A stretch of DNA of 62,926 nt, the filler included, from Globobulimina sp. (taxonomy: Eukaryota), in assembly GCA_003354225.1 (NCBI GenBank). It is 50 parts of 50 records of this genome, joined end to end, with 100 filler letters (N's around TTAATTAATTAA, not from the genome) between each part and the next. Parts side by side here need not be neighbours in the genome. Positions count along the whole stretch, not along the records: positions 25,221 to 26,381 come from PIVH01021995.1; 49 more parts are not named here. One strand, written 5' to 3'. This document shows positions 3,924 to 60,016 of this stretch, piece by piece. A program made the translations under genes and the position numbers. Every line of letters begins with the position of its first letter. Positions within the stretch are counted from its first letter, which is position 1. The notes under the pieces were generated by a model. The model did no database searches. It was not told the origin of the DNA and saw only the letters and a program-made list of their open reading frames with translations.

Positions 3924-4790
3924 ATGACGGCTATTAAAGAAACATTAATATACAGCAAGAGTGCATTAGAGATTGTGACCAATCCATTTATAGTCGGGGA
4001 TGAATTAGTATATTTAGCAAAAAAATCGTCAAAAGATTTTCTGCGTATTTTAGAGATTGATAAACTGCAGCAACCAGTCACATGTTTAAATATATTAAGA
4101 GGTGGAAGATATTACAGCTTAATCGATGCATGGAATGAAGTAAAGACTACAGATTTAAAATTAGCATTATCGGAAATACGAGCTGCGAGGGAGCGGCATA
4201 AAAATGGTAATTGGTTTGCCAAAATATGGCACGATGATGCTGTCTCAAATATATCTGATCAAGAATCGGAAATGAATTTGTTGAATGCGTCCACGTTAAT
4301 TATAGGCGATACAATTGCTACGGGTACGACAATTATTAATGTATTAAACTGGTTTGTTAACTTACGGAAAAGCAATAACATAAATAAAAAAATACAAATT
4401 ATTTTATATTCAATCTGTGGCAGTTCTACCGCCAAGCATATATTGTACAATTTTTATGAGGATATATTAAAACCAAATAACATTGAAATTGAATTATTTT
4501 TAGCAAATGCTGGATATGTATTAAACCAATCAAATGGTACAGATTTAAGTTTAATTACAAATGAAATAGTACCGGAGTCACATAAATATATTGAAAATAA
4601 AATTGGTGCGAAATTTTTGAAAAACATGAAATGTGCGATATGGGATTGGGGTGAGAGATTTAATGGAATTGAGCATCATTTAAAGGAGATTGCACAATAT
4701 TTCTCAACATTTTATATCCATGATTTACCGCAGCATATAAGACAATCACTGATTCAATATCAATCAAAAAGTCTTCCTTCCAAACTGTAA
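3924..4790 (+). CDS. Type I phosphoribosyltransferase (UPRT-like) with C-terminal SKL
   Basis: LNILRGG, PRPP-binding motif IIGDTIATGTT, DWGERF near the C-terminus; ends PSKL*. Confidence 0.8.
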   Translation: MTAIKETLIYSKSALEIVTNPFIVGDELVYLAKKSSKDFLRILEIDKLQQPVTCLNILRGGRYYSLIDAWNEVKTTDLKLALSEIRAARERHKNGNWFAKIWHDDAVSNISDQESEMNLLNASTLIIGDTIATGTTIINVLNWFVNLRKSNNINKKIQIILYSICGSSTAKHILYNFYEDILKPNNIEIELFLANAGYVLNQSNGTDLSLITNEIVPESHKYIENKIGAKFLKNMKCAIWDWGERFNGIEHHLKEIAQYFSTFYIHDLPQHIRQSLIQYQSKSLPSKL

Positions 4791-5104: not shown

Positions 5105-6205
5105 ATGGCAGACTTTAATTTAGCAAATAAAACATTATCACATGAACAATTAGCTATGATTAAGAATCCAGACAACTATGTTATTGATGAAACAATTCTT
5201 GGCTTTACTTCGCGAGACATAGAACAATTAATAAATAATTATGCTGAAAATGCATTATATGTACGAACATCGGTCGATTACCACGATTCCACGCAAATGA
5301 AGCATGAAATACAATTAATAATTAAGGCACAAAGGGCAAGCGATATGAGCCAATATGGCTTCGCAAGCCTTTTAGCGAACGTTGTGGATCTCCGAATTGC
5401 GGGAGAGATTAATAAATATGTTAGCGATGTGACAGTGGTACGACATATTAGCGATGACAAACGCGAATTTGTCAAATATGCAAAAGTATTATTCATAGTT
5501 AAAGCCGAAGAGGCGTATAAATTAAACAATGTAATAAACTTAATTAAGAATCATTTAATTGGCAATGTAGATTTAATGCGATATTTAGGTGGCAATGGCG
5601 CAGATTCAGTGTGTCATTTCACTACAAATAAAAATTCCGCCTATTTATATAACTACAGAATATACGGAATAAGACCCAACTTCTTTTCGTGTAGTATTAA
5701 AGACTTAGGATCGCTGCAACAAATCGCTATATTTTTTGCGTCGAATATGAAACAATTAAAACCCGGGCAATGGGAATTCTTTGCATCGTTTGATGCGCTC
5801 AATCAACGTTTTAAACCAAATTCGTTCGAATTATCAACAAATACACGAATTGAGAAATTGCCAGATGATGAACGTATATTTATACCAAAAGAATACACAA
5901 TTAATGGCCTTCCGTGTGGACTAAATCTGAGAATTACACGTTTGGGACGAATCAAAATGGCGACTAATTCCAAATTATTAATCAATAACAAAGCACAAAT
6001 CAGTGAATTCCAGTCAAAAATGAACGGCCTTAACATCCACGATCCAGTCATTAAAAACATCCACAAACAAGCAAGAAATCATAAAAAGTTTAGAATATCG
6101 AAGCCGTTATTAATTAATGCAATGATTAGAATCTTTAATTACAAACAAAGTGATGCATGCCCTCAAGATACAATTTTGTATGCAATTAAAAACAAAGTAT
6201 GGTCC
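5105..6205 (+). CDS. Hypothetical protein, 3' partial
   Basis: Open frame over 360 codons with no recognised motif. Confidence 0.55.
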
Positions 6206-6424
6206 NNNNNNNNNNNNNNNNNNNNNNNNNNNNNNNNNNNNNNNNNNNNTTAATTAATTAANNNNNNNNNNNNNNNNNNNNNNNNNNNNNNNNNNNNNNN
6301 NNNNNAACCATAAATACCTTTAATTTAAACCTGCTTAAACCAACATTTAATTGAAGCTTTTTGCTTCGCTAGAAAATTCTAAAAAAAAAAACACACATTT
6401 TTCAACAAACCTACTCACAACAAG

Positions 6425-7466
6425 ATGGGTAACGGCTATGCAACCTCTACATTAAAAGTGAAGTCTAAGATGGCCTCACAAAGAATGAAACAACATGTCG
6501 GTAAAAAGGAGAATGCATTGACAAAAACAAAACGTGGCATCGCGCAGTTAATCGCAGAAGACAAGATCCAGTCCGCTCGCATTAAAGTGGAGGGCGTGTT
6601 GCGCGAAGAGAATTTGATGCGCGTCTATGAGTGGTTGGAGATGATGTGCGAGTTAATACATCAGCGGGTCAAACAAATCGAAGTCTCCAAGAAAGACTGT
6701 CCCGAAGATTTACTCGAATCTGTCTGCACTTTATTATATTGCGCAAAACGTGTCGACATCCCTGAATTAACTGAGGTTGGCGGACAATTTAAAGCCAAAT
6801 GGGGCGAAAAATGGTTCAATAAAAACGTTGAAAATAGATCTGGCCGCGTCTCTAAACAAGTTATTCATTCATTATATCCATTCAAAATACGCAAAATCGC
6901 ATAAACAAACCCAATAAACACACAACTGTCCAGATCATAGAAAAATTATCGCCACAGCCACCCAAAAGAGCCACTGTCGATGCAAAATTGAAAGAAATTG
7001 CCACCAAATATGACCTTGATTGGGAGCCTACGGATGCTGTGAATGAAGAAGATATGCCGGCCATTGTTGGCCATCGAAATGAAGTTAACTATACACTCAA
7101 TGACAACCTATACAATACATTGCGATTTTGCGTATAGTACACTGTGGAATTTAACAGCAAACCATTTGGTATGGAATGGACGGCCACCGAGGACGGCGCC
7201 AATTTGTGGGTCTCCAATGTGACACCAATGAGCCAGGCCGCCCGCAGCGGCGTAGTGCCTGGCTCCATGTTGGTGGCCTTGAACGGCATCGATATTCAGA
7301 ATTTGGGCGCGCAATCTATCCATGAAAAGGCCGCCGCGTTGGGCTTGCCATTGCGAGTCACGTTTCGCAAGCCGGAGTCCTTGGAAGCGCCCAAGAATAA
7401 GAAGGATTTCAAGATCAGGGAGGATGTGGTGAACAAATGCGTGAAGCAGTTGAGTACGCCGCAAGC
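6425..7466 (+). CDS. IST1: IST1-like ESCRT-III regulator fused to a PDZ domain; introns 6860..6933 and 7084..7137; 3' partial
   Basis: ARIKVEGVLREE, LEMMCELI, RVDIPEL and KLSPQPP match Ist1; exon 3 KPFGMEW...AARSGVVPGSMLVALNG is PDZ-like; both introns GT-AG, phase 0. Confidence 0.85.
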
Positions 7467-7566
7467 NNNNNNNNNNNNNNNNNNNNNNNNNNNNNNNNNN
7501 NNNNNNNNNNTTAATTAATTAANNNNNNNNNNNNNNNNNNNNNNNNNNNNNNNNNNNNNNNNNNNN

Positions 7567-8727
7567 ATACTTGGTATTTGTGGTGGATATGTAGTTGGTT
7601 CGTTGCTGGGATCTGTACATACATAGAAACAATTTGTCGTTAATTATTAAATGATGATATTTGCCACAACATATTTGTACATACCATATGTTGGATGCAC
7701 ACTCGGTTCAAATGTCGGATACAGTGTAGGCATTATCGATGGAAATACAGTTGGTTCCACTATAAAACATAAAAAAAAAACAGAAAAACAAAATTATTCA
7801 TAAACGTTTTCAACAAAAACACATATATTTGAATGCACAAACATGTCGGTTCAAACGTGGGGGAATCTGTATATGACTCAATATTTTCATTAATCGTTAA
7901 ATACTGAATATAATCCGTCATATTCTGCTTAATATCATCAGGTTTCTTGTATTCGCCCGAATGCCCACCAATCACCAACAACATATCAATATTTTCATTG
8001 TAAGCATATATATCTGAGCCGTACCACCGGATAGATTTAGACAAACCATTCAAATCCACATAAATAAACCGCTCCATATTCATATCAAACACCTCAATAA
8101 TTCTCCCCGTATTCGTCACTGTATTCAAAGCACCGCCAATCAGATACGCCTGGTTTTTTTTGTTATCCACCAACGCATTGAACTCACTCCGTGGATATCT
8201 CATTGCGTCCAACAAAGCAAACTCATCGCTAAAAATATTGTATTTCGTGACCGCTGCACTCAATGCATTTACATACTTATTGTACCCACCAAATAAATAA
8301 ATATACTGTTTACTGCTATCAATGCAACAGGCACCAGAATCGATTCTTGCTTCCGAGGGTAATATGGCAGCATAGAGCCATTCATAAGTGACGGTGTTAT
8401 AAATTATCATCGTATCTGCATCGTTGCAGCGCGGATCAAATTTGTCGATGCTGGGACATTGTGTGTTGTATCCAGCCAAACTGAATAAATGCGTATCGTT
8501 GTTGACTACGCAGGCACCGCCATTTAAATAATACGGTGTGTCGATTAGACCGATGGGCGGAGGGATTATTTGCTGCGTTTCTAAGTTATATACAATGAGA
8601 TAACCTGTTGGGTCGTTATTGAGTTTTTGAGGCGATATCACGTAAAGATATTCATCAATTTGTGTACTACATTTGCTGAAACAAAAGAAACCACCCAATG
8701 AGTTTGTAGTGGTTAATATGTCCCACC
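7567..8727 (-). CDS. Kelch-repeat protein with Pro/Thr-rich repeats, partial, intron-containing
   Basis: YLFGGY, YLIGG and LVIGG kelch motifs followed by PTFEPT repeats. Confidence 0.8.
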
Positions 8728-8988
8728 NNNNNNNNNNNNNNNNNNNNNNNNNNNNNNNNNNNNNNNNNNNNTTAATTAATTAANNNNNNNNNNNNNNNNN
8801 NNNNNNNNNNNNNNNNNNNNNNNNNNNTCTATAGAATCCAAAGGCATAATCTCTTCCGCTGGATCAATATTGAAATTACTATTAATTAATATATGATTGT
8901 CTATATCCTGCAACAGTAATGTAAATAGAGCTAATGCCTCATATACCTTAAACAATATGTAAGAAGAACTGTTCTATTCGGATCGGAG

Positions 8989-9336
8989 ATGACATCTAAA
9001 AAAAAGAACAATAACAGAAATAACGATTATGTACTTTTGACGATATGTCTTCTTGCTCCTGTGTTTGGATTTATCAATATATTTATTACCAAGTCATGGA
9101 TTGCTTATCTTGTATTACTAGGAATATCAGTTTTATTCCCTATTGCTCTACTTATTTGCCAGTATCCAAAGTTGCATAAGCTTTTCATTACACTGTTTTG
9201 GTTACCTCAATTTGCAGTTTATTTTATATTGGCAATGATGTGTCCTATATTTGGTTTTCCACCTGATGATTTTGATATTGTAAAAACATCTCAACAAAAA
9301 GAGATCTCACCAAAGGTCTATGGTAAATGCAAATAG
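8989..9336 (+). CDS. Integron cassette ORF 1, small membrane protein
   Basis: GGAG next to the ATG, about three hydrophobic helices, followed by attC. Confidence 0.7.
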   Translation: MTSKKKNNNRNNDYVLLTICLLAPVFGFINIFITKSWIAYLVLLGISVLFPIALLICQYPKLHKLFITLFWLPQFAVYFILAMMCPIFGFPPDDFDIVKTSQQKEISPKVYGKCK

Positions 9337-9373
9337 GTACCTGTTTTTACAAGCAAATAATTAAACAACATTT

Positions 9374-9504
9374 GTATAACAAGCCAATAAACGCTGACCG
9401 CAAAACATCGGCGGTATAGCCAAATTTAGCGGTACGCATAAAGTAATTCAAAAATTCAGCTTTAATCGTCCGCACTTTCGGGGCAGGTTATCGCGACGTT
9501 ATGT
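9374..9504 (+). mobile_element. Integron attC site (~131 bp)
   Basis: R'' GTATAAC-AAGCCAATAAACGCTGACCGC ... GCAGGTTATCGCGAC-GTTATGT R'; imperfect palindrome between two co-oriented ORFs. Confidence 0.85.
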
Positions 9505-12638: not shown

Positions 12639-13536
12639 TCAAGCGATTAACCTAGGACGTTTTGTAGTGCAAACACCAGAATTTGCTGAGGCGGTCGCAC
12701 CTCCAGATCTGAAACTGTGAGTACCGTATTGAGTACGATCATATCCGAGTGACTGAAGTGCAGTTAATAGCAACTCACGAGCCCGACCATAAGATAAGCT
12801 CTGTGGTGTAAGTGACTCGCCTGTTTTGGTATGACGGATGACCCGAAACAGGGGACCTGTGTCCCCAGGATTAAGAAGCTGTCCCTGGGACATATAACTA
12901 TACAAAGCTGCTACTGGACATAACGCCCCATCAACACGAGAAATATGGATACTGTGACCGGCATTAGATTGGTCAGTCTTACTGCGACGAATAAACAGCG
13001 TCATATAGGAATCATAAAACTGAACGTCAGAAGGACGCAATACTGTAGCATCGGAGAACCGTAAAAATCCTGAAAAACAGACCAAACATAGAGAGATAAA
13101 ACGACGGTTTGTCAGTGTAGGCTCAGAGTAAAGGGAGATAAATTTTCGCAAAATAGCAGGAGTAATTTCGCTTTTTTGCCTACAAGGCAAAGGCACACGT
13201 TTTTGTGCTTTAATGACAGACGTACAAACAAAATGGTCAGTACCATCGGCTAAACCACAAATTTTGTGAGCCCAACTAACAGCAGACAAATGTAATTGCA
13301 AAGTGGAAACACTCCGATTTTTGACTTTTAAAGAATTAAGAAAAACCGAAAACTGAAGTGGATCACATGGCAGTACAGAATACAAAGCAGAACTAGCAAA
13401 TACACGCCATCGCTGAAATGCACTACAATACATATAAACAGTGGTTGGTGCCTGTGCTGACATGACAGAAGTAAGTAAATCCAATTTAGTGTCCAATATA
13501 AGTGAAGACGCGAACCAATTACCAACAGTAGCAAAA
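12639..13536 (-). mobile_element. Tyrosine recombinase of a DIRS-like retroelement, C-terminus truncated
   Basis: FSGFLRFSD, IRRSKTDQ, ALCPVAAL, YGTHSFRSGGAT; the expected HGRW...Y segment is missing; putative 3' splice site TTTTAG near 13537. Confidence 0.85.
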
Positions 13537-14497
13537 TCTAAAACAAAAACAAAGACATGCCAGTGCGTACTGTATATGTCAGCATAAGAATCATCAATAG
13601 AAAAAGCCGCTAACCAGCTATTGACGGTGTACTGTGCATTGTCGTGGGTAGGGCAAGAAAAGCGGCGTTGTAAGAGCCGGCGCTCTATGGTCCAAAAGCC
13701 GACCTGAATGACTCAAGCTCTGTTCCTACCCACGCTCTACCTACATATCCTGTGCAAAAAGCTTATTTCAANNNNNNNNNNNNNNNNNNNNNNNNNNNNN
13801 NNNNNNNNNNNNNNNTTAATTAATTAANNNNNNNNNNNNNNNNNNNNNNNNNNNNNNNNNNNNNNNNNNNNTGCAAATGCAATCTCAATCCAATGCACAG
13901 TCCTCAAACTCCTGCCTAGCTCAAGTAGAGCACTGGATAGATATATCCAGAAGATTCAGGTTCAAAGCCTGAGGCAGCCCCAACAAATATATCCAAATAA
14001 ATGATTTGATTGAGGAAAGGAATGAAAAATATTTATTATTTGAAAAATTACGGTTTTCCATTTGCAGACAATATTTATGGATAAAAACTAAAAACAAAAC
14101 ACGGAATAAACATAAAATATTATATTTAGCTGTTTTGAGTGAATTACAAATCACAAATTTAGACGAATTGGCTACAATTAATGATTTAGCAAATTATAAA
14201 GTATTTATGCAACAAAATGATATTTTAAGGAATTTGTTTGTTTAATACTTATAAAAAATACTTTTATCGCAAAAATTTATTATTTCTCAATTAAAAATTA
14301 TATTATTTCATATCGGATACTTTATCATGACCTTATTCATCAATGTGATGATTTTATGAGCAAATTTAAGCAATTTAATGATTCGCAAATCAATTCAAAA
14401 TCAAATATGTATGATTTTGCACAATTAATTGATATGAATTATTTAAAGGAAATAATGGAACATATTTTAAATGATTCAAATAAATTATCAATGCTGA

Positions 14498-19215: not shown

Positions 19216-19977
19216 TCAAGGAGTAACATAACAAAATTTCTTTTCTCCTTTCAACAGACCGGTCCTCAGCCGACACTTAGCAGGACAATTTATACTACAA
19301 TCAATAAGTAAATAACCGTAGGGGTTTTTGTTCCATTCTAACTGATCCTGTTTCGCCATCGCGAAGGCTTGCGCAATATAATTACTGGTGGGAACGTGTC
19401 CTATTTTTGGGTAGAGTTGACGATTGAGGTAAGACAGGACATTCATATCGCGTGGAGATTGAAATAAGACGATCGAGGAAGCATTGCGACTGCAAGTTAG
19501 CCAGTTTGTGTGATGGCTGGCGAACAGTTGATGAGCCACGATAAAAGTACAAATGTTTTGATGATGACAAGAGGCTATCATTAGTTTGACCAATGCTGGA
19601 TCATTAGCTACTTCGTGCAAACAATCGTCGAGAATGAAGCAAGCCGCTCCTTCCTCCGGACGACCTATATTGTCAACTTTGAACAGGTGTTCACCAAATT
19701 CTTTAGTCATCAATAGTTTGTTACCAAAATGATTTCGCAATTCATCGTAACAGGGTTGATTGGCAAATTTATGAATCAGCACTACGCGTCTGATCGTGCT
19801 CGAGGGAAAGAATTCGTTCCAATGCAACAATATTTTATTCAAGAAATGAGTTTTACCTAAACACAAACAAATGTAAACAAATAGCTAATATTATCACCAC
19901 TGACCGCTCATCGTCGCTCCGCATACAATCATAGAAAATGGTGGACTGGACAATATAGGTACATATTGATTCTCCAT
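19216..19977 (-). mobile_element. Maverick/Polinton (adintovirus-like) A32/FtsK packaging ATPase; intron 19857..19904
   Basis: Spliced PFSMIVCGATMSGKT (Walker A), FILDD (Walker B), SCHHQNICTFIVAHQLF, RNASSIVLFQSPRD, PYGYLLID, RLRT. Confidence 0.88.
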
Positions 19978-25220: not shown

Positions 25221-25349
25221 ACGCATATATTGAAGGACAGCTTGGGCGGCAACAGCAAGACGATCATGTTGGTGACGGTGTCGCCGCACATCTATAACCG
25301 CGGGGAGACCATTCGGACGCTGCGGTTTGCGTCGACTGCTTTGTTCTGA
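25221..25349 (+). CDS. Kinesin motor domain C-terminal fragment, ends abruptly
   Basis: THILKDSLGGNSKTIMLVTVSP...ETIRTLRFA. Confidence 0.85.
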   Translation, partial: THILKDSLGGNSKTIMLVTVSPHIYNRGETIRTLRFASTALF

Positions 25350-25502
25350 CTTTGTTCAGGATTTGCAAAGCGTTTCTCAGATAATTGAATCAAATGTATA
25401 CAACTTATCGACCACCCTTTTCATCAAAAATAAAACCAGCTTAAAAATAATAAACAAAGAATCATCATCAATATGATCTGAAAAAAAATAAATGTATTGA
25501 AC

Positions 25503-25817
25503 CGGTTCAGGTGGGATTTTAACCCACATCCATGTGTATTGCATGACAGAATTAATTACAGAATAATACTGATAAATGCAGGATTTTTATGGCTTTTAGC
25601 GTTATTTTTTTTTTATTTTACTGTTAACGTCGGCAACTGCCACGCAGCCATTCATGGTGGCCATGGGCATCTTCACAATGTCAAACAGTATTTTTTTTGG
25701 TTTTAGTGTTAGGCGTTGGCAATGCTTGACTGGTATTGTAACGTCATAAGAAAATATTCATTGTTTGGGTGTAGCCAAAGCCACAGACACACGCTCTAAC
25801 AGTTGAGCTACTGAACC
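25503..25817 (-). tRNA. tRNA-like gene, anticodon GTG, with 242-nt insert at the canonical 37/38 intron position (25539..25780)
   Basis: Acceptor GGTTCAG/CTGAACC, D arm GCTC/GAGC, anticodon stem TGTGT/ACACA, T arm GTGGG/CCCAC, T loop TTAAAAT, T8 run downstream. Confidence 0.75.
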
Positions 25818-26481
25818 ATTGGATCATTCGGATGCTGTATTGTTGCCAACAAACGTGTACATATACAATGCTGAAACTACAATTAAAAGTTCATGGCAAA
25901 CGAAGTGCATTGTGCAATTCATATCAGTTTCCATGTTGTGCTCTCTTTGTCTTTTGCCATCTTTGTTATTGACATTACTAAGCATTGTGGAATGATAAAT
26001 TAAATTTGATTTATGTCTTGTTTTATTGAAAGGTATAGTTTGTTTGCAAAGGATGTTTGGAAAGAATTGAGGAGTGCAGAAAACAATTTTAGTGCAGAAA
26101 ACTACTCTCTGTCAGTAATAGCTCTACGGATTTATCGATATTGTATTGAGATGTATCACGCAGTACATCTTATAAATAAAATTAATTCTGTCATACAACA
26201 TTTATTTTTTTGATATATCATAATATAAAGCCTTTAAATATCGCGTGTGATACATGACAATAATTACGATAATCAGACTCAAATAACAACACAAAAATGT
26301 CAGTATTCCAATCCAAGGTTTCTGCACAAAAAAAGCGTCGAATGCAGTGAGTGTATCATGTAAACCTTGGCCAAATCCAATNNNNNNNNNNNNNNNNNNN
26401 NNNNNNNNNNNNNNNNNNNNNNNNNTTAATTAATTAANNNNNNNNNNNNNNNNNNNNNNNNNNNNNNNNNNNNNNNNNNNN

Positions 26482-41659: not shown

Positions 41660-41732
41660 TGGAGTACCCGGGTTTCGATCCCGGTGCCTTAACGTTGCGA
41701 ACGTTACGCGCTTCCGATTGCGCCAGTACCCC
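41660..41732 (-). tRNA. tRNA-Ala(CGC)
   Basis: Full 73-nt cloverleaf with G3:U70, anticodon arm TAACG-TTCGCAA-CGTTA, T-rich terminator downstream. Confidence 0.95.
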
Positions 41733-45286: not shown

Positions 45287-45386
45287 NNNNNNNNNNNNNN
45301 NNNNNNNNNNNNNNNNNNNNNNNNNNNNNNTTAATTAATTAANNNNNNNNNNNNNNNNNNNNNNNNNNNNNNNNNNNNNNNNNNNN

Positions 45387-46546
45387 CTTCCAGAACTGAA
45401 CAGGGTCATGATAAATGACAAACCCATAAATAATGTAGAAAAGTTCTCCAGAATATAGCATAATGAGCCCAAATGCCTCCTGTCGCCTTAGAATAAACTG
45501 TTCTTTCACTTGAGGCATAGCATTAACATCCAAATGTTCAGTATCGTTGACTATTGACCAAAGTCCTTTTGATTTCATAGCAACAACCATGCTTTTTCGC
45601 CATTGTATCCAACGAGTGTCATAAAGGCCATTCAAACGAAATAAGGTATTAGCAGCTTCTTCTTGACTGGATGCGACCAGTTGCGGCACGGAATCGACGA
45701 CCAGTTCAGGCACAGGACTGACAACCATTTTCGGCACACAATCAACGGCCGGTTTTGGCACAAATGTCACATCCACATCTGAAGTCGCAATTCGCATTTC
45801 TGGCTCCTCTAGAGTATCTCCTCCTCGAATTCGACTGGGAACCATTTTCGACTGACCACTGACAACCAACAAAGAATCCAAAACTCCTCCTTGATGCGCA
45901 TCTTCTGAGTTTTTGACCGATTCATTGTCTGGGGAATCTGTTGAAATGTGCACTTTCAATAAACCACCACTGAATGAACTGTCCTTGGGGGATTCACTAA
46001 TGCCATCTTTCTGACATACCATATGATTGTCTACATTGAACAATGACTGACCACCACCTGGCAATAAACGTGTGGTGTCACATTGAACTGTTTGGTCGAA
46101 TGCAGTATGATTTTTCGAATTTTCACATTCATTGACTGATTTAACTGTGCCTTGACCGCACTCCTCGGGTAGGCGGCACTGACCTTTCACAGCTGATGAG
46201 GAGTTTTCGACAATTGGACATTTTTCGGGTACCAACATCTGACTATTACTGTCATGTTGACCCGACTGACCACTAACAATCAATTTAGAATCCATACCTC
46301 CTTCTTGCACTGGCTGCGAACTGACTAGTCCATTGTTTACTGAGTAAAGTACCTCCAAAAATCCATTGGAACCATATGAACTGTCCTGAGGTGATTCATA
46401 AATGTCTGTATCTTGACAAATAACTTGATTGTTCTCTTGCAACGACGGCTGACACCCACCTGGCAATAACGATGTGGTGTCACGTTGAATGCTCTGGCCA
46501 GAAACTGTATGAATGTCCGAATGTTCATAATCATTGACTGAATAAC
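45387..46546 (-). mobile_element. Ty1/copia gag-like ORF preceded by a duplicated ~130-aa segment, partial
   Basis: LNG....WIQWRKSM...MKSKGLWSIV...RRQEAFGLIML...DPVQFWK. Confidence 0.75.
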
Positions 46547-47055
46547 NNNNNNNNNNNNNNNNNNNNNNNNNNNNNNNNNNNNNNNNNNNNTTAATTAATT
46601 AANNNNNNNNNNNNNNNNNNNNNNNNNNNNNNNNNNNNNNNNNNNNAAATCAAAAAGTGAATGCTACAAAAGATGTAATTCGTATATATGATGAGGATGG
46701 CAGCTATCATTTTGGATTTAATAGGTCGTGCTTGCCAGAACGCACACCAAACGGATAAGAAACACACTCTACGGTTTGTATATTGCTTTTGCAAAAAGAC
46801 ATATATAGAAATTGAATACCCAAATAAATCACATCAATGTCATTGTATATATATTTAGTGATATGAATAAAAGTGTTGACTGAATCTGATGAATAGTCAT
46901 GGATTCATTTGGATAAACCCGAAAACACACAAAAACACCGATCTTAAGTACACAACTACCTTAACCTATTGAAAATAATTTTCGTTTACTTAAGCAACTT
47001 TTTCAAGTCTCCATCATACATACTTGCGCGCACAGTATTTGTGAGTTCTGTTTAA

Positions 47056-59830: not shown

Positions 59831-60016
59831 GACTCAGTAGCTCAACGAGTTTATGATAGAGCATGTGTCTGCAGCTTATGCTGTTCCACCAACATTAATT
59901 TCATTTGCTTTTTTTTAATATACATCATAAACGATACTTTATCAACATAGAAATCATCATATGAAATGTTGTAATTACAATGCACATGGATGTAGGTTTA
60001 AATCCTACCTGAGTCT
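59831..60016 (+). tRNA. tRNA-like gene, anticodon GCA, with 106-nt insert at 37/38 (59875..59980); homolog of 25503..25817; possibly a pseudogene
   Basis: GACTCAG/CTGAGTC, GCTC/GAGC, TGTGT/GCACA, GTAGG/CCTAC, discriminator T; enlarged D loop; long T run inside the insert. Confidence 0.7.

Follow-up and report, generated by a model that had tools for sequence, protein, structure and literature searches.

A candidate nuclear tRNA gene with a 242-nt insert in its anticodon loop in Globobulimina sp.

This report describes a transfer RNA (tRNA)-shaped gene with a long insert in the genome assembly of Globobulimina sp. (GCA_003354225.1). The window, that is, the whole stretch of DNA that was analysed, has 62,926 nucleotides (nt) and consists of 50 parts of the assembly separated by fillers of 100 N's; parts side by side in it are not necessarily genomic neighbours. 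The gene, here called copy 1, occupies positions 25503-25817 on the minus strand, in the part taken from PIVH01021995.1 (window positions 25,221-26,381). It is intergenic, lying between a kinesin fragment and a PH-domain gene according to Pfam, and the genome around it has 32% GC. Copy 1 was compared with a relative in the same window, copy 2 (59831-60016, plus strand), and with a third member at positions 289-504 of a metagenome contig, L001. The features within the window are collected in Table 1.

Two tRNA halves and their insert

The minus-strand halves of copy 1, 25817-25781 (37 nt) and 25538-25503 (36 nt), close a cloverleaf around the insert. The first-pass annotation of this DNA had described the rejoined halves as fully paired once 242 nt are removed, and this was confirmed. 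All 21 pairs are standard (acceptor stem 7/7, D stem 4/4, anticodon stem 5/5, T stem 5/5), and the core bases U8, A14, A21, U33, G53, U54, U55, A58 and C61 are present. With the cut placed at 37/38, the anticodon loop is CTGTGG+T; TGGAT forms the variable loop and TTAAAAT the T loop, and the discriminator is G73. The same annotation had pointed to an A-rich insert without T runs longer than four and to a T8 run after the gene. Both observations hold (38% A; T8 at 25488-25481). As for the signals of RNA polymerase III (Pol III), the longest T run inside the gene is 4, the T8 lies downstream, and position 56 is A.

Standard searches do not recover this gene. Copy 1 escapes both ARAGORN at default settings and Rfam at gathering scores, and the sole tRNA that they find in the window is a tRNA-Ala at 41660-41732. 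Raising the maximum intron above 300 nt, a check that had been proposed beforehand, did yield a call. With introns of 0-400 nt allowed, ARAGORN reports copy 1 at c[25502,25818], reads it as tRNA-Cys(gca) and puts the 242 nt at 33/34. The background of this setting is low: dinucleotide shuffles of the window gave no call in 60 and seven calls in 600 (five of the seven intron-bearing), or about 0.01 per window. A contiguous degenerate tRNA at 25572-25507 was also considered and was set aside as too weak (17.9 bits against a threshold of 29 for the Rfam tRNA model; E 0.57).

The position of the cut had been given as 37/38. The three members share one layout: the 5' exon ends in CTGNNG and the 3' exon starts with T followed by its stem strand, which gives a 7-nt loop with U33 and G37. 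This layout agrees with a cut at 37/38, and ARAGORN cuts at 33/34 instead. The ARAGORN reading as Cys(GCA) with a 33/34 cut was rejected. Its GCA is drawn from the 3' end of the intron and is absent there in L001 and copy 2, and the anticodon that covaries with the intron is the one on the 5' side.

Similarity among the three inserts is confined to the first ~16 nt and the last 3 nt (CAA). The scores of local alignments between the interiors fall within the range of shuffled sequences, with 38, 283 and 75 of 300 shuffles scoring as well. At E values up to 10, Rfam returned only chance-level matches: AdoCbl and the eL15 leader in or near the copy 1 insert, and SNORD27, SNORD74 and permuted tmRNA in or near that of copy 2, all of them antisense to the gene. 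No box C (TGATGA) was seen in the sense strand of the copy 1 and L001 inserts. Folding of the whole 315-nt copy 1 RNA gave a z-score of -2.60, and the acceptor, D and T stems are kept in the unconstrained minimum-energy fold. The insert has no second copy within the window, and no target-site duplication was seen flanking copy 1. A short sense-strand open reading frame (ORF) is present in the insert at 25602-25757 (minus strand). It has 22 codons from its first ATG, spans the GC-rich hairpin listed in Table 1 and takes its lysine end from the A10 run; it is probably due to chance.

Relatives and paired changes

Copy 2 had been reported earlier as a homolog with paired changes and a shared variable loop, and both points were verified. 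All 21 of its pairs are standard and its variable loop is TGGAT; position 56 is T. A blastn comparison with copy 1 matches exon parts only, 35 nt of the 3' half (88.6% identity) and 13 nt of the 5' half, and finds no match between the flanks or the inserts of the two copies. ARAGORN calls copy 2 only at a relaxed threshold, as Val(tac), among seven calls at -ps90; at -ps85 and -ps80 the calls rise to 30 and 123 and are mostly spurious. The Rfam tRNA model gives it 17.9 bits, for a contiguous alternative reading. Because of its 15-nt D loop, its internal T8 and its recovery by ARAGORN only at the relaxed threshold, copy 2 is probably a dead gene of the GCA type. Decayed remnants of a tRNA-derived short interspersed element (SINE) had been named as the outcome that would speak against a functional family; this fairly describes copy 2 and is refuted for copy 1.

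A relic of the family lies in the same part of the window as copy 1, at 26180-26211, and is a 33-nt inverted partial copy of it. In copy 1, the part that the relic lacks is flanked by a 7-nt direct repeat, CAATACA. A slippage deletion in a lost paralog is suggested as its origin.

The third member was found by a search with a degenerate 3'-exon pattern. L001 is a metagenome contig of 1012 nt with 48% GC. Its member matches copy 2 in the acceptor stem and shares the D, anticodon and T stems of the family. The loop is CTGCAG, the insert is 143 nt long, and the longest T run in the insert-bearing gene does not exceed 4. Its T loop is the canonical TTCAAAT, so that the odd T loop with A56 is confined to the AT-rich copies of the window. 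Of its pairs, 20 of 21 are standard, and its B box fits the consensus, from which copy 1 and copy 2 depart at position 56. The Rfam tRNA model scores it at 44.9 bits (threshold 29), aligning these four stems and opening a gap of 146 nt in the anticodon loop. ARAGORN reads this member as tRNA-Thr(cgt) and gives it a long extra arm and an intron of 134 nt. This was judged a mis-parse because the Rfam alignment and the three-way comparison agree on the other structure.

On one strand of L001 the order is the 3' part of a signal recognition particle (SRP) RNA (32 bits, below threshold), the long-intron tRNA, tRNA-Arg(CCG) 16 nt after it, tRNA-Sec another 14 nt on, and U2 small nuclear RNA (97 bits). 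The three tRNA genes thus stand 14-16 nt apart with no intervening T run, the first T5 being found beyond tRNA-Sec, and may form one Pol III unit. The looser 3'-exon pattern matched this one metagenome contig and nothing in prokaryote genomes or viral contigs; the stricter, exact-type pattern had no matches in the metagenome, viral or prokaryote collections, and a pattern of exon and intron start had none in viral contigs. The same exons with an insert at the same place support a family that spans a second organism. The first-pass annotation had spoken of a two-copy family. This number is too low, as L001 and diverging contigs in the sequencing runs (see below) add further members. The wider proposal of a family of giant-intron tRNAs was upheld by the score of the L001 member, by covariation in the stems and between anticodon and intron, and by insert-bearing contigs in three runs.

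The stems of the three members differ by paired changes. In the order copy 1, copy 2 and L001, pair 2-71 is GC, AT and AT; pair 3-70 is TA, CG and CG; pair 51-63 is GC, AT and CG; and pair 31-39 is TA, TG and TT, the last being the sole non-standard pair. Copy 1 differs from each relative at 7 of 42 stem letters, and none of its pairs is broken. When seven changes were placed at random in the stems, all pairs were kept in only 19 and 20 of 200,000 trials for the comparisons of copy 1 with its two relatives; for the three stem differences between L001 and copy 2, 753 of 200,000 trials did as well. The test draws on three sequences and is below the grade of R-scape. As far as these sequences go, neutral decay from a common ancestor is ruled out as the history of copy 1.

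Changes also extend from the anticodon into the intron. All three inserts open with CTT..GCT, and intron positions +6 to +10 can pair with intron +1 and positions 37-34 in a hairpin of 5 base pairs with a 4-nt loop. The pairs 34:i10, 35:i9, 36:i8, 37:i7 and i1:i6 (i, intron position) are standard in all three members. In the members with anticodon GCA, 35:i9 is CG and 36:i8 is AT; in copy 1, with GUG, they are TA and GT, and 34:i10 is GC. At the other end, where CAA stands directly before U38 in all three inserts, a bulge-helix-bulge helix is possible: copy 1 and L001 have standard pairs at 33:-4, 34:-5 and 35:-6, the last of which shifts from CG in L001 to TA in copy 1, in parallel with 35:i9. 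The anticodon of copy 1 has changed from GCA to GUG together with a matching change in the intron, and the structure of the pre-tRNA would therefore have stayed under selection.

Table 1. Features of copy 1, copy 2 and the relic, in window coordinates
Feature	Position	Strand	Basis
Copy 1 5' exon with the 5' strands of the acceptor and anticodon stems, the D arm (loop of 8 nt) and loop 32-37 CTGTGG, anticodon GUG at 34-36	25781..25817	-	ARAGORN cloverleaf
Copy 1 insert (intron), 242 nt, 36% GC, 38% A, longest T run 4	25539..25780	-	X1, X2, X3 and X5 contigs on it
Intron +1..+10 (CTTTGGCTAC), 5-base-pair hairpin with positions 34-37; bears the changes compensating GCA-to-GUG	25771..25780	-	Pairing comparison; same hairpin in constrained folds of copy 2 and L001
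GC-rich irregular hairpin mid-insert, between A8 (25698-25691) and A10 (25614-25605)	25618..25692	-	Fold -24.1 kcal/mol, z -2.23, 4/200 shuffles as good
Intron -7..-1 (CATGCAA); -4 to -7 can pair with 33-36 (helix of bulge-helix-bulge type); final CAA common to three members	25539..25545	-	Alignment, pairing comparison
Copy 1 3' exon: U38, anticodon stem 3' strand, TGGAT, T arm, acceptor 3' strand, G73 at 25503	25503..25538	-	Adapter-bearing X2 and X3 contigs end here
T8, 15 nt beyond the discriminator, likely Pol III terminator	25481..25488	-	Sequence
Relic: copy 1 intron 3' end fused directly to terminator flank, without 3' exon	26180..26211	+	blastn, alignment
Copy 2 5' exon, 15-nt D loop, loop 32-37 CTGCAG (anticodon GCA)	59831..59874	+	Alignment
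Copy 2 insert, 106 nt; T8 at 59909-59916 should stop Pol III	59875..59980	+	Sequence
Copy 2 3' exon, T loop TTTAAAT, discriminator T	59981..60016	+	blastn, alignment

Sequencing contigs and the surroundings of the gene

Five sequencing runs contain the copy 1 stretch; their library types are unrecorded, and none of the five is recorded as RNA. Contigs of runs X1, X2 and X3 (one sample, organism A) and of X5 (a separate study, organism B) were mapped to 25221-26381. Contigs cannot reveal strand, ends or level, and rare and short forms get dropped from them. Uncovered stretches, 25416-25493 in all runs and 25806-25922 in X2, X3 and X5, were left out as evidence.

In X1, depth is flat at ~8 over the insert, like that of the flanks (7-12), and 4- to 10-fold higher on both exons. 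The insert is taken as single-copy in X1 because its depth matches that of the flanks. The picture in X2, X3 and X5 is of another kind. Depth on 25494-25571 reaches 14,000, 14,000 and 390,000, declines steadily to 45-1,700 by 25767-25805, and is 0-26 upstream of the gene (most of 25806-26381). The junction between intron and 3' exon is bridged by contigs in three runs (X5 records 25-29, X2 record 13, X1 record 5). One contig in X2 and one in X3 carry an Illumina adapter, then GG, and then the plus strand from 25503. Read in the sense of the RNA, these contigs end in ...ACCG+CC, which is the 3' exon to G73 followed by CC where the genome reads GT. Together, the contigs suggest an abundant minus-strand RNA in which the insert is kept, the end is trimmed at the discriminator and a CCA tail is added.

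Several contigs agree along the 3' exon and the adjoining ~20 nt of the insert and diverge beyond them, with loose ends at 25541, 25556 and 25558; there are therefore further family members or alleles. Nine variant positions were listed in the insert, none of them within 25627-25727. A back-joined (circular) or excised insert was found in no contig, in a material that loses rare forms. The earlier proposal that the excised insert could be a cargo RNA was not sustained: the interiors are unconserved, no known Rfam RNA lies inside, and the contigs hold no excised or circular form.

Several observations concern the surroundings of copy 1. The ~100 nt upstream of the gene (25818-25922) have a depth of 28-48 in X1, against ~8-12 in the single-copy flanks, as if this region too were common to paralogs. 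One X1 contig skips 26090-26150. On the other side, the kinesin motor end (25221-25349, plus strand) belongs to an ORF that ends at 25349, and the X2 and X3 contigs depart from the window after 25339. Their continuation translates to the kinesin neck-like KKVKNKAKI. Depth in X1 is 6,000-9,500 at 25340-25415, which marks a high-copy repeat. The kinesin copy of the window may be interrupted by this repeat.

Elsewhere in the window, Pfam domains include HAP2-GCS1, HMG-CoA synthase and a Ctr transporter, besides the kinesin motor and the PH domain. A complete ORF at 3924-4790 has as its nearest named relative a protein of Reticulomyxa filosa (44% identity), with unnamed EukProt entries up to 72%. 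Together with the Pfam domains, this points to an AT-rich eukaryotic host that probably belongs in or close to Foraminifera. The tRNA-Ala mentioned above (41660-41732, minus strand) has the anticodon CGC, 55.7 bits, the T loop ATCGAAA with A at position 54, and a T5 after it. Two long minus-strand ORFs, 12639-13712 and 19216-19884, match no Pfam family at E up to 0.01. By eye, the former resembles the tyrosine recombinases of Crypton-like elements, and the latter a packaging-type ATPase. A further ORF at 45339-46598 (minus strand) has a gag-like look by eye.

Interpretation and known systems

We favour the reading, with a probability of about 0.58, that copy 1 is a spliced giant-intron nuclear tRNA gene of a Cys(GCA)-type lineage in Globobulimina sp. 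Pol III would transcribe the gene from ~25817 to the T8. The contigs suggest that the ends are then trimmed and CCA is added at G73, and that an end-matured, intron-bearing precursor of ~318 nt builds up. The tRNA splicing endonuclease, measuring from the mature body, would excise the 242 nt, and a ligase would join the halves into a 73-nt tRNA with the loop CUGUGGU. All members of the lineage would carry an unusually long intron at 37/38, a single base beyond the anticodon on its 3' side, and in copy 1 the anticodon would have moved from GCA to GUG with the intron altered in step.

The family is labelled Cys(GCA)-type, and no amino acid is assigned to copy 1. Its body is presumably Cys-like by comparison with eukaryotic tRNA-Cys. 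The discriminators are G in copy 1, T in copy 2 and A in L001. In eukaryotes, the identity rules as stated in the relevant passages of PMC9976931 are U73 with GCA for Cys, and G-1, A73, G34 and U35 for His.

Several findings count against the proposed tRNA gene. The Cys rule is followed only by the probably dead copy 2 (GCA, T73), as L001 combines GCA with A73 and copy 1 combines GUG with G73. Copy 1 does have the G34 and U35 of His, with G73 and, in the genome, a T at -1. Copy 1 has A in place of C56 of the T loop and B box, and a single G in its D loop. The A-I pair 32:-3, which is required for 3' cleavage in the eukaryotes studied, is C.C in all three members. The programs disagree on the splice sites: ARAGORN cuts copy 1 and L001 at 33/34 and reads the L001 member as tRNA-Thr(cgt) with a 134-nt intron, and the Rfam tRNA model gives copy 1 just 17.9 bits, for the contiguous alternative rather than across the insert. 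The spliced junction (25781 joined to 25538) occurs in no contig, in runs where short or rare forms drop out. Finally, we infer expression and the CC end only from depth contrasts and from two adapter-bearing contigs of unrecorded library type.

The same contigs have also been considered as the record of a final product. The insert-bearing RNA would then be a stable, CCA-tailed, tRNA-framed noncoding RNA of ~318 nt, made from a long-intron tRNA gene that has lost splicing, with the mid-insert structure presented from the anticodon arm. This reading is possible and we hold it only tentatively. The unspliced form is the only one among the contigs, at 1,000 to 100,000 times the depth of the flanks in X2, X3 and X5; however, only the precursor would be seen wherever a library loses RNAs of ~75 nt, and missing spliced contigs say little. 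The A for C56, the lack of a G18-G19 doublet, a discriminator outside the Cys and His rules and the C.C at 32:-3 would all suit an RNA that is no longer spliced. The central hairpin (25618-25692; -24.1 kcal/mol, z -2.23) and the variant-free stretch around it would fit as well, but the z-score is modest and the insert interiors are unconserved among the three members. The hairpin between anticodon and intron, moreover, has been kept and compensated, as expected of a splicing substrate, and the L001 member looks like an ordinary tRNA within a tRNA cluster. A bolder version, which we consider somewhat more doubtful still, is that RNAs of the copy 1 type are a small family of abundant, ~300-nt, CCA-tailed end products with a full tRNA frame and a structured insert on the anticodon arm. 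They would have come from tRNA-Cys genes whose introns grew until splicing ceased and would be a nuclear eukaryotic counterpart of scaffolds like transfer-messenger RNA (tmRNA).

Decay offers another explanation, in which copy 1 would be a tRNA pseudogene or tRNA-derived repeat, transcribed but functionless, and its insert junk or a transposon insertion. Copy 2 is degenerate (15-nt D loop, internal T8), the relic at 26180-26211 is without its 3' exon, the locus adjoins the high-copy repeat at 25340-25415, and the T loop of copy 1 is non-canonical. Yet the 21 stem pairs of copy 1 are intact despite seven differing stem letters, the intron compensates the anticodon change, and no T run exceeds 4 across 315 nt in a genome of 32% GC. 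The insert, for its part, has single-copy depth in X1, no other copy in the window and no target-site duplication that could be seen, and an insert with the same opening motif occupies the same site in another organism. We therefore judge this explanation to be unlikely. Least probable of all, and by a wide measure, is that the anticodon loop holds a self-splicing intron of group I, as bacterial and plastid tRNA genes do, or that the tRNA derives from an organelle. The AT-rich T loop is as in organelle tRNAs, and the insert, with its 242 nt and its anticodon-loop site, would be similar to the small group I introns known from genes for tRNA-Leu and tRNA-Ile. But Rfam returns no group I or II intron at E up to 10, and at no cut site does a U before the 5' cut coincide with a G closing the intron. 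Kinesin, HAP2 and PH-domain genes in the window, and U2 in L001, mark the context as nuclear, and the degenerate exon patterns match nothing in prokaryote genomes or viral contigs. Very little weight is left for all other readings together.

The spliced giant-intron tRNA gene, which we prefer, would have consequences beyond this locus. Standard tRNA finders miss copy 1, and the tRNA sets of foraminifera and their relatives may therefore be under-counted. The family would be a natural test of how much intron length the ruler of the splicing endonuclease can accommodate and how far it copes without the 32:-3 pair. It would also be a clean example of an anticodon change that pulls compensating changes in the intron with it and so shows selection on the structure of the precursor. 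If instead the RNA stays unspliced, it would be a new type of tRNA-framed RNA, and an abundant one, in a group of eukaryotes about which little is known.

Among known systems, tmRNA resembles copy 1 in that its two ends form an acceptor and a T arm, with ~240 nt in between and a CCA end (here suggested by contigs). Copy 1 differs in its pair 3-70, which is U-A and not the G.U of alanine charging, in its full D and anticodon stems and in its nuclear eukaryotic context; an ARAGORN search of the window for tmRNA found none. tRNA-derived SINEs and rodent BC1 RNA have a contiguous 5' tRNA-like part and an A-rich middle, are transcribed by Pol III into abundant RNA and lack a closing 3' half. Copy 1 shares the tRNA-like 5' part and the A-rich middle and, as we infer, the transcription and the abundance. 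In contrast to these elements, its tRNA part is split, with halves that close a full cloverleaf around an insert of single-copy depth in X1; the window has just copy 2 and the 33-nt relic beside it, and no flanking duplication was seen.

Drosophila and other metazoans make tRNA intronic circular RNAs (tricRNAs; PMC6614914, and Lu et al. 2015 as cited in PMC10275265), which are the known form of the cargo idea. A long tRNA intron like the present one could likewise leave a stable RNA once excised. Here, however, the contigs hold no back-joined or excised form, the interior is unconserved, and the form that accumulates retains the 3' exon. Anticodon shifts between alloacceptors, or tRNA remolding, have been described as well (PMC3923123 and PMC4783518). 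Copy 1 is similar in being a body of the GCA type that reads GUG, as if a duplicated gene had switched its anticodon. It differs in that two anticodon letters changed, the intron along with them, and in that G73 fits neither charging rule.

The closest system is that of canonical nuclear tRNA introns. Long tRNA introns in Rhizaria are not described in the literature searched, supplements excepted. According to the passages on introns in a 2023 review (PMC10275265), eukaryotic tRNA introns are located at 37/38; those of budding yeast measure 14-60 nt, while others reach 133 nt. The human intron-bearing families named there are Tyr-GUA, Ile-UAU, Arg-UCU and Leu-CAA, with Cys not among them. The present family differs in the length of its introns (242, 143 and 106 nt), in its Cys-like type, in its C.C at 32:-3 and, in the copies of the window, in position 56 (A in copy 1). 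To our knowledge, Cys is also absent from the intron-bearing tRNA families of yeast. The likeness lies in the insert one base 3' of the anticodon, in the anticodon-intron pairing, in the freely varying interior and in the Pol III-style terminator. It may extend to CCA on an intron-bearing precursor (here suggested by contigs), as the same passages describe end-matured, CCA-bearing, intron-containing pre-tRNAs in yeast, exported before splicing, as normal intermediates (PMC10275265). If the 242 nt are spliced out, this intron would be about twice as long as the longest eukaryotic tRNA intron that these passages record, at 133 nt (PMC10275265).

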